Shown here piece after piece: positions 6,470-9,983 of a stretch of 17,317 nt of DNA. A program made the position numbers and the translations under genes. Source of the DNA: a virus (lineage: Duplodnaviria; Heunggongvirae; Uroviricota; Caudoviricetes); the IMG/VR virus record IMGVR_UViG_3300029745_000045. One strand, given 5' to 3'. Position 1 is the first letter of the stretch. Every line of letters begins with the position of its first letter. The notes under the pieces are model-generated. The model was not told the DNA's origin, did no database searches, and saw nothing but the letters and a program-made list of their open reading frames with translations.

Positions 6470-8407
6470 GTGACTCTTAAACGGGCCTGTTCCCTGCTGA
6501 CGGTGAAATCCTTCAGTGAGGATGAACGGGTGATCACCGGGATTGCGTCAACGCCTTCTCCGGATCGGGATGGTGACATCCTGGAGCCGGAGGGCGCGGA
6601 GTTTGGCAGTGCGATCCCGTTTCTCTGGCAGCATGACCATTCCCGCCCGGTGGGGCAGTGTACGGTGCGCCGGGTCAGCGAAGGGCTGGAAATCACGGCA
6701 ACACTGGTGAAGCCCGTACCGGATATGCCGTCGCAACTGGCTGCCCGGCTGGATGAGGTCTGGGCGGCCATTAAGACCGGGCTGGTCAGGGGGCTGTCCG
6801 TGGGCTTCCGTCCCCATGAATACACCTTTCTGGACGGAGGCGGACTGCATTTTCTGCGCTGGGAACTGATGGAGGTGTCTGCCGTCACCGTGCCCGCGAA
6901 TGCGGAATGCACCATCCGGACCATTAAATCTTACGACCGCCCGTTTTCTGCCGCGTCCGGCAACCGGAAACCGGTGGTGAAAATCGCATCTTCTGCCGGC
7001 GCTGCGGCACAGTCAACAACCGTTTTTCATAAGGAAAAGACCATAATGAATATTGGCGAACAGATTAAAAGTTTTGAAAACAAGCGTGCAGCGCTGGCAG
7101 CCTCCCTTGAGGAGGTCATGACCAAAGCCGCAGAGGAAGGGCGCACGCTGGATGTGGAGGAGGAAGAGCATTACGACAACACCGCAGCGGAAATCCGTCA
7201 GGTGGATGCGCACCTGAAGCGCCTGCGTGAACTGGAAGCCGGTAAGGCCGCCACGGCGCAGCCGGTGAAACAGGCCGGTAACGGGAATGTGGCCGCGGTG
7301 GCTTCTGCGCCGGTGATCCGTGTGGAGCAGAAACTGGATAAGGGGATTGGCTTCGCCCGCTTTGCCAAATCGCTGGCTGCGGCTAAAGGCGTCCGATCTG
7401 AAGCCCTGGAAGTGGCCCGTCGTCAGTATCCGGATGACAGTCGTCTGCATCATGTCCTGAAATCGGCAGTGGGCGCGGGGACCACCACGGATCCGCAGTG
7501 GGCAGGCAGCCTGTCTGAATATCAGGAATACGCACAGGACTTTATTGATTACCTGCGTCCGCAGACCATTATCGGGCGATTTGGTCAGGGCGGGATCCCT
7601 GCACTTCGTCAGGTGCCGTTCAATATCCGTGTGCACGCCCAGGTGTCCGGCGGTGCTGCCGGCTGGGTGGGTGAGGGTAAGGCAAAACCCCTGACGAAGT
7701 TTGATTTTGAATCCATCACCTTCAGTCATGCGAAGGTGTCGGCCATTGCGGTACTGACGGAAGAATTGATCCGTTTTTCCAGTCCGGCTGCTGATGCACT
7801 GGTCCGTAATGCGCTGGCGGAAGCGGTGGTGGCGCGTCTGGATACAGACTTTGTGGACCCGAAAAAAGCCGCAGTGGCAGATGTCTCCCCGGCGTCCATC
7901 ACCCATGATGTGAAGGGCACGGCATCAACCGGTAACCCGGATGCGGATGCAGAGGCTGCGTTTGGACAGTTTGTGGCAGCAAACCTGCAGCCCACCGGTG
8001 CGGTCTGGCTGATGTCCAGCACCAATGCCCTGGCACTGTCCATGCGTAAAAATGCGCTGGGTCAGAAGGAATACCCGGACATGCCCCTGCTGGGTGGCTC
8101 CTTCCAGGGGCTGCCGGTGATTGTCTCCCAGTACGTGGGTGACCAGCTGGTGCTGGTGAATGCCCCGGATATTTATCTGGCGGATGACGGCGGCGTGGCA
8201 GTGGATATGTCCCGCGAGGCATCACTGGAAATGCAGTCTGAGCCGACCGGCGACAGTACCACGCCGTCCCCGGTGGAGCTGGTTTCCATGTTCCAGACAG
8301 GCAGCGTGGCCATCCGTGCGGAGCGCTGGATCAACTGGCGTCGTCGCCGTACCGCGGCAGTGGCGGTGATCACCGGTGTGAACTACGGCAGTGCGTCCGG
8401 CGGCTGA
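6470..8407 (+). CDS. Prohead protease fused to scaffold-like region and HK97-fold major capsid protein
   Basis: GTG start with CAGGAGG RBS. First ~180 aa fit the HK97-family prohead protease pattern (…LWQHDHSRPVGQ…GLSVGFRP…MEVSAVTVPANAECTI); then a coiled-coil stretch from an internal Met at 7046 (MNIGEQIKSFENKRAAL…); then a capsid-like domain. No in-frame stop separates them. Confidence 0.8.
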   Translation: MTLKRACSLLTVKSFSEDERVITGIASTPSPDRDGDILEPEGAEFGSAIPFLWQHDHSRPVGQCTVRRVSEGLEITATLVKPVPDMPSQLAARLDEVWAAIKTGLVRGLSVGFRPHEYTFLDGGGLHFLRWELMEVSAVTVPANAECTIRTIKSYDRPFSAASGNRKPVVKIASSAGAAAQSTTVFHKEKTIMNIGEQIKSFENKRAALAASLEEVMTKAAEEGRTLDVEEEEHYDNTAAEIRQVDAHLKRLRELEAGKAATAQPVKQAGNGNVAAVASAPVIRVEQKLDKGIGFARFAKSLAAAKGVRSEALEVARRQYPDDSRLHHVLKSAVGAGTTTDPQWAGSLSEYQEYAQDFIDYLRPQTIIGRFGQGGIPALRQVPFNIRVHAQVSGGAAGWVGEGKAKPLTKFDFESITFSHAKVSAIAVLTEELIRFSSPAADALVRNALAEAVVARLDTDFVDPKKAAVADVSPASITHDVKGTASTGNPDADAEAAFGQFVAANLQPTGAVWLMSSTNALALSMRKNALGQKEYPDMPLLGGSFQGLPVIVSQYVGDQLVLVNAPDIYLADDGGVAVDMSREASLEMQSEPTGDSTTPSPVELVSMFQTGSVAIRAERWINWRRRRTAAVAVITGVNYGSASGG

Positions 8408-8618
8408 GTCTGATGAGGAGGGCGGGAGGCGCGAGCTTCCCGCAGTAACTGATGGCAAAAATCCAGTATCTGCAGGGCACGCATGATGCCCGGGCCGGGG
8501 ATATCCGTGATGTGGCACAGCCGTGTGCGGAGGTGCTGGTTCGCCTGGGAAAGGCGGAGTACATCACGGTGCGACGTCCGGCAGGTCAGAAAAAGAAACG
8601 TGATGCGGAGCATGGCGA

Positions 8619-9983
8619 ATGTGGAACCTTTTACGGCGAACCCGAAAAAACCAGAAATCAGGACGTGACGTAAGAGAGGCGGGCTGGACCAGCCTGTTTC
8701 AGGCGGTGGCTGAGCCCTTTTCCGGCGCCTGGCAGCAGGGCGTGAAAGCCGATCCTGAAGCCGTCCTCTCCTTTCATGCGGTGTTTGCATGTATTTCGCT
8801 GATATCCCAGGATATCGCCAAAATGCGGCTGCGTCTTATGCAGACGGATGCGCATGGGATACGCAGGGAAACGCGCCGGGGGGATATTGCCCGCCTCTGT
8901 CGTCGTCCCAACGCCCAGCAGAACCGCATCCAGTTTTTTGAACTGTGGCTGAACGCCAAACTGCGTCACGGCAATACGGTGGTGCTGAAAATCCGTAATG
9001 CCCGGGGGCAGATCAAAGAACTGCGTATTCTGGACTGGAGCCGGGTTGAACCTCTGGTGGCGGATGACGGCGAGGTGTTCTATCGCATTACACCGGACCG
9101 GAACTGCGGGATCACGGAGGCGGTGACGGTGCCTGCCAGGGAAGTGATCCACGACCGGTTTAACTGTTTTTTTCATCCGCTTGTGGGGCTGCCGCCGGTG
9201 TATGCTGCCGGGCTGGCGGCCACGCAGGGGCATCATATTCAGGCAAATTCAACGTCTTTTTTCAGAAATGGCGGCAGGCCGTCCGGGGTGATTGAGATCC
9301 CCGGCAGTATAACGGAAGAAAATGCGAAAAAACTGAAGAGCAACTGGGACAGCGGGTATACCGGCGAAAATGCGGGGAAAACGGCGATCCTGAGCAACGG
9401 GGCGAAATATAACCCCACGACGTTTTCACCGGTGGATGCGCAGACGGTGGAACAGCTGAAAATGACGGCTGAAATTGTCTGTTCGGTGTTCCGTGTCCCG
9501 GCCTACAAGATTGGCGTTGGCCAGCCGCCTTCCAGTGACAACGTGGAGGCGCTGGAGCAGCAGTATTATTCCCAGTGTCTGCAGACGCTGATTGAGTCCA
9601 TTGAGCTGTTACTGGATGAGGCGCTGGAAACAGGGGAAAACGAGAGCACGGAGTTTGATGTCACCACGCTGCTGAGAATGGACAGTGAGCGGCGCATGAA
9701 AACGCTGGGGGATGCGGTGAAAAATACGCTTCTCACGCCCAATGAGGCCCGTAAACGGGAGAACCTGCCGCCCCTGGCCGGCGGTGATGCACTGTATCTT
9801 CAGCAGCAGAACTACAGTCTGGAGGCGCTGTCCCGTCGTGATGCCCGTGAGGATCCGTTCGCGTCGACCGGGAAAACAGTTTCATCACAACTGCCTGACG
9901 GCGCATCTGACGGTAATAAGGCCATAAGCGAAACAGAGCGTGATGCGGTGAAGGCGATGTTCAGGGGGATACTGCGAAAATGA
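8619..9983 (+). CDS. Portal protein (HK97 family)
   Basis: 454 aa with portal-like motifs (…FFRNGGRPSGVIEIPGSITEENAKKLKSNWDSGYTGENAGKTAILSNGAKYNP…VFRVPAYKIGV). GGAG RBS 8 nt upstream of the ATG. Confidence 0.8.
   Translation: MWNLLRRTRKNQKSGRDVREAGWTSLFQAVAEPFSGAWQQGVKADPEAVLSFHAVFACISLISQDIAKMRLRLMQTDAHGIRRETRRGDIARLCRRPNAQQNRIQFFELWLNAKLRHGNTVVLKIRNARGQIKELRILDWSRVEPLVADDGEVFYRITPDRNCGITEAVTVPAREVIHDRFNCFFHPLVGLPPVYAAGLAATQGHHIQANSTSFFRNGGRPSGVIEIPGSITEENAKKLKSNWDSGYTGENAGKTAILSNGAKYNPTTFSPVDAQTVEQLKMTAEIVCSVFRVPAYKIGVGQPPSSDNVEALEQQYYSQCLQTLIESIELLLDEALETGENESTEFDVTTLLRMDSERRMKTLGDAVKNTLLTPNEARKRENLPPLAGGDALYLQQQNYSLEALSRRDAREDPFASTGKTVSSQLPDGASDGNKAISETERDAVKAMFRGILRK

Follow-up and report, generated by a model that had tools for sequence, protein, structure and literature searches.

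The gene at 6470-8407 of the window (by which we mean the whole stretch of 17,317 nucleotides analysed) joins a prohead protease, a linker, a scaffold-like segment and a major capsid protein in a single reading frame, and it probably works as a nested pair, giving the polyprotein and also the capsid protein alone, with the proteases tethered in the prohead and then cleaved. We consider a nested gene probable because a start codon occurs at the internal position in 84 related loci, the Shine-Dalgarno (SD) sequence before it is conserved and, where relatives have split genes, these meet at the same point. The layout itself is real but not new, and the protease-capsid fusion is already annotated in BP-4795, in Pseudomonas phage PAJU2 and in the protein family phrog_617. 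The new element is the methionine codon at 7046, which the comparison of homologues indicates to be conserved family-wide.

The window comes from an E. coli lambdoid prophage of the BP-4795 / phage 2851 type and corresponds to its late region (lysis, head, tail). The region matches 93 phage records at 90-99% identity; many Stx phages are among them, as are BP-4795, phage 2851 and YYZ-2008. Of 5426 complete E. coli genomes, 1255 carry the head region. DNA identity to BP-4795 is 96.7% over 3601 bp and that to phage 2851 and YYZ-2008 is 98%; for the 6400-10000 region the values range from 96.7 to 98.2% across these phages and Stx2-1717, which represent Marienburgvirus and related Stx prophages. 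The BP-4795-type module and the window share the order TerS, TerL, fusion, small ORF, portal, repeat protein and connector, with minor differences only, the repeat protein of the window being one repeat shorter. Homology with BP-4795 stops at 15861, within the tape measure gene. The BP-4795 counterpart of the fusion, ORF56 'putative major head protein/prohead protease', is 98.8% identical to it by tblastn.

The initial annotation had placed protease, scaffold-like segment and capsid in one 645-codon frame, and this was borne out by Pfam, phrog, AF2 and Foldseek (Table 1). The family phrog_617 ('major head protein') matches from end to end, with aa 1-639 aligned to profile positions 7-626 (E 6e-261). 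By profile, the N-terminus is an S78/HK97-type prohead protease, and proteolysis of the capsid precursor is its predicted activity. Peptidase_S78 (PF04586) matches aa 48-152 with 34.7 bits against a cut-off of 21 (E 2.4e-8), phrog_80 'head maturation protease' also matches the fusion protein (E 2e-41), and the domain is beta-rich in the AF2 model, with pLDDT values of 70-88. His55 (LWQHD) and Ser110 (GLSVGF), which by analogy with HK97 gp4 we take to be the catalytic pair, are conserved in 145/145 and 144/145 sequences, respectively, counting the query and those cluster representatives that have a residue aligned there. The linker that follows has pLDDT values below 50 at aa 143-191 and, judged by eye in an alignment of 17 enterobacterial sequences, is the least conserved stretch of the protein.

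The C-terminal part is, according to the predicted structure, an HK97-fold major capsid protein with a helical, delta-like domain at its N-terminus. The scaffold helices have pLDDT values of 86-89, and the first of them begins two residues past Met193; furthermore, profile positions 198-267 align with residues 4-71 of the stand-alone capsid protein 9gyi_B. Phage_capsid (PF05065) matches aa 386-635 (53 bits against a cut-off of 24.2, E 4e-14). With the whole AF2 model as the Foldseek query, the shell matched the capsid proteins of Bxb1, D3, HK97, T5 and GTA with probability 1.0 and E values of 7e-15 to 1e-9; all the matches were capsid folds and no protease structure was among them. The profile search of the PDB likewise matched capsid structures and no protease structure, and a PDB search with the single sequence gave one weak capsid match and nothing else.

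Table 1. Coordinates of the features in and around the fusion gene (positions of the window)
Feature	Position	Strand	Basis or remark
Weak hairpin then T-run, terminator-like	6431..6448	+	just 5' of the fusion RBS
Shine-Dalgarno AGGAGG for the full-length product	6459..6464	+	5 nt upstream of GTG
Protease-linker-scaffold-capsid polyprotein ORF	6470..8407	+	645 codons, GTG start
Prohead serine protease domain, aa 1-142	6470..6895	+	PF04586 profile, AF2
Disordered variable linker, aa 143-192	6896..7045	+	AF2 pLDDT, alignment
Internal SD-like AAGGA	7031..7035	+	10 nt upstream of ATG 7046
Putative nested in-frame ORF, scaffold (delta-like) + capsid, 453 aa, from Met193	7046..8407	+	ATG
Two long helices, predicted HK97 delta-like scaffold segment, aa 195-223 + 229-262	7052..7255	+	AF2
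Predicted HK97-fold capsid shell domain, aa about 349-645	7514..8404	+	Foldseek, PF05065
Conserved small gene, 73 aa, function unknown	8452..8673	+	phrog_829, E 1e-38
Portal protein gene, 454 aa	8619..9983	+	PF04860 E 2e-81; phrog_2271 positions 1-451
Repeat-containing protein, 407 aa, function unknown	9980..11203	+	after portal across the family

Regarding the neighbourhood, the portal gene does lie downstream of the capsid gene, as had been described, and the order TerL, fusion, portal turned out to be the norm of the family: it is annotated in public phage records, it occurs in 78 of 84 related loci and it is reversed in none. The 211-bp GC-rich gap reported before the portal gene stands only as a distance, since 211 bp do separate 8407 from 8619 and their GC content is 61%, but the stretch is not empty. 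An intergenic gap could be ruled out because a phrog_829 gene lies inside it, annotated as ORF57 in BP-4795 and overlapping the portal start by 55 nt. By tblastn this small gene is 99% identical in the BP-4795 locus (L001) and 45-57% identical in loci L002-L015. After the portal, whose stop shares an ATGA overlap with the next gene, comes the repeat protein, with a 162-bp unit present 3.7 times at 10145-10737; 69 of the 84 loci have homologues of it 3' of their portal gene, and phrog_2271 spans both proteins. Genes for a gp6-like connector, a head completion protein and a gp10-like protein adjoin the head module according to Pfam. Profile searches identified no second protease gene in the head module.

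The full-length product has translation signals of its own. The AGGAGG upstream of the GTG codon has an anti-SD duplex energy of -10.3 kcal/mol, which is stronger than that of the internal SD, and both the T-run and the AGGAGG are kept in loci L001-L003. The tail tube gene at 12737 has a comparable hairpin, T-run and AGGAGG before its start. With an upstream SD that is strong and resembles that of this major tail gene, the polyprotein may be made in quantity even though it starts at GTG.

An in-frame methionine codon preceded by an RBS had been proposed at 7046, and we found it with an AAGGA of moderate strength locally; relatives have a conserved SD at the same place. Its energy of -6.2 kcal/mol is near those of the TerL (-6.1) and portal (-5.8) starts of the window; 12% of the in-frame positions of the ORF score equally well, and therefore the SD before Met193, taken from this sequence alone, does not go beyond chance and the comparative data carry the case. 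Among the 17 enterobacterial homologues Met193-Asn194 is invariant. In all the 84 related loci a start codon stands at the Met193 position (79 ATG, 5 GTG/TTG). In the comparison across loci the internal SD equals that of the upstream start in strength, with medians of -6.5 and -6.2 kcal/mol. In the more distant fusions a methionine lies at most 6 residues before the conserved helix in 118 of 144, the background methionine frequency being 2.4%, and the others have a methionine 7-8 residues before the helix or a valine or leucine at the same place. The anti-SD energy at the internal start was within the top 5% of in-frame positions in 29 of 58 distant fused loci and within the top 20% in 53 of them (binomial p about 1e-31, a value that overstates independence because the loci are phylogenetically related, although the lineages span several phyla), and many of these loci have a perfect GGAGG. 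The conservation of start codon and SD gives strong comparative support to the earlier suggestion that both a fusion and a capsid-only product are possible. Met217 (7118) is preceded by GAGGAGG, and we rejected it as a start because this SD ends just 2 nt before the ATG, the codon falls within the first helix and it is at the Met193 position that stand-alone capsid proteins begin.

The relatives also show the fusion in two states. At E<=0.001 we found 12,506 matching cluster representatives and examined the best 150 of them for the fusion; 144 of these best 150 are full-length fusions (38-54% identity), found across Proteobacteria and beyond. Closer homologues of about 645 aa (73-78% identity) occur in Salmonella, Enterobacter, Klebsiella, Serratia and others. 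Nine relatives (47-51% identity) have protease and capsid as separate genes, with the boundary exactly at the Met193 position, and they are scattered over six or more places in a rough neighbour-joining tree. The stand-alone capsid proteins begin at positions equivalent to aa 193-196 of the query. A split made by one stop codon is viable only if the capsid start works already. Given how widely it occurs, the fusion gene is genuine and ancient.

The main alternative is that only the polyprotein is made, so that each capsid subunit is a 645-aa fusion that brings a protease of its own, released by self-cleavage once assembly is done, and Met 7046 is an unused relic of an ancestral capsid start. 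We regard this as unlikely, although several observations agree with it. The PAJU2 homologue is annotated as 'prohead protease fused capsid protein'; its authors, as cited in PMC8306868, proposed a capsid-protease fusion that is autocatalytically cleaved, and no second start is mentioned in that citation. The upstream RBS (AGGAGG, -10.3 kcal/mol) is strong, like that of the abundant tail tube gene, and by our rough volume estimate a T=7 prohead could fit 415 extra domains of 21 kDa. However, an unused methionine and SD within a disordered linker that is the least conserved part of the protein should decay, and yet the start codon is kept in 84/84 loci and an SD is enriched in 53/58 distant loci, and the loci that lack ATG there carry GTG or TTG. 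Furthermore, the repeated conversion between fused and split forms requires a working capsid start. Finally, known HK97-like proheads hold far fewer proteases than capsid subunits: there are about 60 proteases per 415 capsid subunits in HK97 and about 90 in D3 (PMC12749128), so that a protease below the capsid protein in number is the norm.

It is very improbable that the internal product alone matters and that the N-terminal protease is vestigial and decaying. Nothing specific favours it beyond the resemblance of the internal start to a normal gene start, whereas the domain is well conserved and has a strong SD at its own start, and the head module has no other protease gene that we could identify. 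The retention of His55 and Ser110 in essentially all the homologues argues that the protease must be functional and, with it, the long product.

That the fusion arose through a sequencing error, or through a recent mutation erasing the stop between two genes, is refuted. A boundary stop does exist in the nine distant split relatives, and occasional truncated copies from E. coli (e.g. P0007 and P0010) occur in the protein database, but 92 of the 93 matching phage records have the 645-codon frame without interruption, as do 1244 E. coli genomes at a coverage of at least 80%, many genera and the 144 representatives already mentioned. The initial annotation had named a stop at the domain boundary in related genomes as the sign of such an error, and its absence from near relatives and from more than 1200 E. 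coli genomes indicates that the fusion is not one.

For the nested gene, which we prefer, the following course can be proposed. Initiation at GTG 6470 would give the 645-aa polyprotein, the sole source of protease, and initiation at ATG 7046 would give the 453-aa scaffold-capsid protein, which would form the bulk of the shell. Both products would co-assemble through their common capsid and scaffold parts, leaving a tethered protease inside the prohead, and this protease would then cut itself and the scaffold domains off to leave the mature capsid protein. The analysis shows the domain content, the conserved fusion, the gene order and the conserved start codon and SD, whereas actual use of the internal start, the ratio of the two products and the cleavages belong to the proposal. 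A wider generalisation is possible, which we advance tentatively: that the whole large family of 12,506 cluster representatives (E<=0.001) might have the capsid nested in a polyprotein gene with a conserved internal RBS, the protease dose being set by the ratio of the two initiations, and that lineages might switch freely between nested and split forms.

In the literature searched, protease-capsid fusions are treated as simple polyproteins and a dual start is not described for them, although an earlier mention is possible. The searches also turned up no Ribo-seq or proteomic data on this module. The papers on Cluster O mycobacteriophages and PBR31 contained nothing about fusions. The 'prohead protease fusion' of a CBASS preprint refers to a protease-scaffold protein of phage Bas13, so it is not relevant here.

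The gene is better annotated as a protease-capsid polyprotein in which a capsid ORF is likely nested, and what was described as a gap ahead of the portal is to be entered as a gene. About a quarter of the complete E. coli genomes and many Stx phages carry the module, so that the correctness of its gene models bears on prophage typing and proteomics. Use of the internal start, if real, would also explain how the gene can pass between fused and split forms and stay functional. We see in this a modest refinement of the known logic of head assembly and not a new kind of system.

Outside the BP-4795 type, one of the closest known systems is that of PAJU2. Its ORF003 is 48% identical to the fusion over the full length, being called 'structural protein' in its record and 'capsid polyprotein' (UniProt P85500) in PMC8306868. 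The order TerL, fusion, small ORFs, portal, ORF007 is like that of the window, and the same internal methionine is present (Met197), with GGAGG 8 nt upstream, although the phage has another host and is far diverged. The concept recurs in other phages, whose annotation assigns protease, scaffold and capsid to a single protein.

With HK97 the common ground is the S78 protease family, the N-terminal scaffold (delta) domain of the capsid protein and the capsid fold, along with the neighbouring gp6-like connector, head completion and gp10-like genes. The HK97 protease reportedly enters proheads through a C-terminal targeting region (Duda et al. 2013), whereas the protease of the window would be covalently tethered. 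Furthermore, HK97 has separate genes in the order portal gp3, protease gp4 and capsid gp5 (PMC12749128), whereas the window has one frame with the portal after it.

Regarding the proposed expression, the closest parallels are lambda C/Nu3, HSV-1 UL26/UL26.5 and HFTV1 gp17/gp17.5, where an in-frame internal start downstream of an N-terminal protease gives the assembly protein alone and keeps the protease:scaffold ratio low (bioRxiv 10.64898/2026.09.13.751334). The window resembles them in its N-terminal protease, in encoding the assembly protein in the same ORF and in its conserved internal start with an RBS. Use of the internal start is experimental in lambda, HSV-1 and HFTV1, whereas in the window we infer it. 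If that start is used, the nested protease/scaffold strategy of lambda, the herpesviruses and an archaeal virus would extend to the capsid protein itself: their nested product is a scaffold protein made free of the capsid protein, which has a separate gene, whereas in the window it would be scaffold and capsid in one chain.

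The fusion of prohead protease and capsid protein in a single frame is real, as judged from its recurrence among homologues. The frame, its coordinates and the domains it encodes agree with the initial annotation: Pfam places Peptidase_S78 at aa 48-152 and Phage_capsid at aa 386-635, and phrog_617 spans the protein end to end in the PHROG search. Besides the E. coli copies, proteins of around 645 aa with 73-78% identity were found in Salmonella, Enterobacter, Klebsiella, Serratia, Kosakonia, Pantoea, Yokenella and others. Furthermore, an exhaustive HMMER search over 1.84 billion cluster representatives gave 12,506 matches at E<=0.001 and 1182 at E<=1e-30, and 144 of the best 150 matches (38-54% identity) were full-length protease-capsid fusions, mostly of 630-680 aa. 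The catalytic-type residues are retained, His55 in 145/145 and Ser110 in 144/145 aligned sequences. Regarding the structure, the AlphaFold2 model (alignment of 40 sequences, mean pLDDT 76.5) predicts an N-terminal beta-rich domain (aa 1-142), a disordered linker (143-191), long helices (195-223 and 229-262), another disordered stretch (267-285) and, after three short helices (293-332), a C-terminal domain, which resembles the HK97-fold capsid proteins of Bxb1, D3, HK97 and T5 (Foldseek probability 1.0).

All the long ORFs of the window lie on the + strand, and their order was assigned by Pfam and PHROG searches.

Genes of the window and the searches behind each assignment
Feature	Position	Strand	Evidence
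Phage lysozyme	427-960	+	Pfam/PHROG
Antirepressor	1234-1929	+	Pfam/PHROG
Rz	2290-2868	+	Pfam/PHROG
HNH endonuclease	3530-3895	+	Pfam/PHROG
Small terminase	4185-4748	+	Pfam/PHROG
Large terminase	4745-6406	+	Pfam/PHROG
645-codon fusion ORF	6470-8407	+	Pfam/PHROG
73-codon ORF	8452-8673	+	phrog_829, E 1e-38
Portal	8619-9983	+	PF04860, E 2e-81
407-aa repeat protein	9980-11203	+	Pfam/PHROG
gp6-like connector	11200-11526	+	Pfam/PHROG
Head completion protein	11536-11886	+	Pfam/PHROG
HK97 gp10-like protein	11883-12329	+	Pfam/PHROG
Tail completion protein	12326-12670	+	Pfam/PHROG
Tail tube protein with Ig domain	12737-13453	+	Pfam/PHROG
Tail chaperones	13420-13842 and 13866-14147	+	Pfam/PHROG
Tape measure protein	14195-16306	+	Pfam/PHROG

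By megablast, the region 6400-10000 has matches of 90-99% identity in 93 phage records, among them BP-4795, phage 2851, YYZ-2008, Stx2-1717 and many Stx1a, Stx2a and Stx2c phages. It also occurs in 1255 of 5426 complete E. coli genomes, a single genome carrying as many as 7 copies. These matches identify the window as the late region of a lambdoid prophage of a very common type. The HNH gene lies around 290 nt 5' of the small terminase gene, and an HNH gene precedes the small terminase gene in two related loci as well, L002 and L003 (the latter from Salmonella). At the other end, the tape measure ORF encodes only 703 aa, its BP-4795 counterpart having 1080 aa; homology to the BP-4795 DNA ends at 15861, and beyond 16306 the + strand has no long ORF. 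At its right end, this copy of the prophage may have been truncated or have recombined.

The portal gene does follow the capsid gene, as initially annotated, but the 211-bp gap described between them is not a gap, because it holds the 73-codon gene, which shares 55 nt with the portal start. This gene is ORF57 in the BP-4795 annotation and its protein keeps 45-57% identity in enterobacterial relatives. One or two small ORFs are also seen at this junction in distant relatives, for example ORF004/005 of Pseudomonas phage PAJU2 and 9091-9345 in the related locus L066. In order to place the layout we retrieved 80 loci from different species, among them Enterobacterales, Pseudomonas, Stenotrophomonas, many Alpha- and Betaproteobacteria, and MAGs assigned to Flavobacteriaceae, Phycisphaerae, Actinomycetales, Clostridia and others. 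When 84 loci were searched by tblastn with the window proteins, the portal was 3' of the fusion in 78 and upstream in none (most of the other six being short contigs), the large terminase was directly 5' of the fusion wherever detectable, and a homologue of the 407-aa protein lay 3' of the portal in 69. Gene calls confirmed the fusion-then-portal order in three loci, BP-4795 and PAJU2. Judging from these loci, the order terminase, fusion, portal is the norm for the family of the fusion gene, which answers the question raised in the initial annotation. Public records already contain both fusion and layout: ORF56 of BP-4795 is listed as a 'putative major head protein/prohead protease', Stx2a phage records carry 'major head protein/prohead protease', and PAJU2 ORF003 is annotated as 'prohead protease fused capsid protein' and known as a capsid polyprotein (UniProt P85500; PMC8306868).

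The 407-aa protein gene, whose ATG overlaps the portal stop (ATGA), contains a 162-bp (54-aa) unit repeated 3.7 times in tandem at 10145-10737, and the C terminus of the protein is weakly CBM_5_12-like. The BP-4795 version has 461 aa and one repeat more, and phrog_2271 is one 859-position family that covers both portal and repeat protein.

The in-frame ATG at 7046, already noticed from the sequence, encodes Met193, two residues ahead of the first long helix, and has AAGGA 10 nt 5' of it. Its Shine-Dalgarno (SD) is moderate (-6.2 kcal/mol, equalled by 12% of the in-frame positions in the ORF), and the window sequence alone is a weak indication of an internal start. The comparison across relatives argues strongly for it. 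Met193-Asn194 is invariant in 17 enterobacterial homologues, the linker before it being, by eye, the most variable part of the protein. A Met stands at most 6 residues ahead of the conserved helix start in 118 of the 144 distant fusions, mostly at -4 or -5, against a background Met frequency of 2.4%; the others show Met at -7 or -8, or else Val/Leu occupying that same place. At the DNA level, a start codon lies 3-11 codons before the anchor residue in 84/84 loci (ATG in 79, GTG/TTG in 5). When the anti-SD pairing energy was ranked over every in-frame position of the respective ORF in 58 fused loci with <60% identity, the internal start was in the top 5% in 29 loci and in the top 20% in 53 (binomial p 1e-31). 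A perfect GGAGG, encoded as Lys/Pro-Glu-Gly, precedes it in many of these loci, and in PAJU2 GGAGG lies 8 nt 5' of Met197. In strength, the internal SDs match those at the upstream starts of their genes (median -6.5 internal and -6.2 kcal/mol upstream), and they are at least as strong as those of genuine capsid gene starts in relatives with split genes. We found no description of this family-wide conservation in the literature that could be read.

In nine relatives (L065-L068, L070, L072, L074, L080 and L084) the protease (190-250 aa) and the capsid protein (458-485 aa) are encoded by separate adjoining genes, and the capsid gene starts at the Met193 position. Five capsid-only cluster representatives begin at query residues 193-196, and profile positions 198-267 align with the N terminus of 9gyi_B, a solved stand-alone capsid protein. 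When the capsid parts were placed in a rough neighbour-joining tree, the split loci were dispersed among the fused ones, at no fewer than six places, a pattern which suggests that fusion or fission has recurred at this boundary.

Most likely, one frame would give two products. The 645-aa polyprotein, started at GTG 6470 with AGGAGG 5' of it, would be the sole protease source, because the Pfam and PHROG searches identified no second protease gene among the head genes. ATG 7046 would give a 453-aa product, the scaffold domain plus the capsid protein. Both would co-assemble via their shared part, placing a tethered protease inside the shell, and this protease would afterwards cut off both itself and the scaffold domains. 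The chief alternative, a less likely one, is that the polyprotein is the only product and is later cleaved. This fits the proposal of the PAJU2 authors (autocatalytic cleavage; Uchiyama 2009, as cited in PMC8306868), and the strong upstream ribosome-binding site, like that of the tail tube gene, speaks for an abundant long product. On the other side, a single stop codon in the linker would not be tolerated unless the capsid start already worked. For the two-product reading, the domains, the conservation and the start signals were observed in the sequences, whereas we infer that the internal start is used, in what ratio the two products form, and that they are cleaved.

A short GC hairpin, a T-run and then AGGAGG lie at 6431-6464, before the fusion gene, and a similar arrangement is found at 12699-12733, before the tail tube gene; the products of these genes are the two most abundant virion proteins. 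The arrangement may couple a strong ribosome-binding site to a read-through terminator or an RNA-stabilising hairpin. The full-length start is GTG in the window and BP-4795, ATG in L002 and L003, and ATG in 48 of 55 distant fused loci; with GTG, the E. coli lineage might make less polyprotein relative to capsid protein.

HK97 and D3 differ from the window in having separate genes in the order portal, protease, capsid (PMC12749128), whereas here the fusion comes first and the portal after it. Nested starts would provide fewer proteases than capsid subunits, as in these two phages, with around 60 proteases per 415 capsid subunits in the HK97 prohead and around 90 in D3 (PMC12749128). The proposed two-product scheme shares its nested-gene logic with lambda C/Nu3, HSV-1 UL26/UL26.5 and the recently shown HFTV1 gp17/17.5 (bioRxiv 10.64898/2026.09.13.751334).
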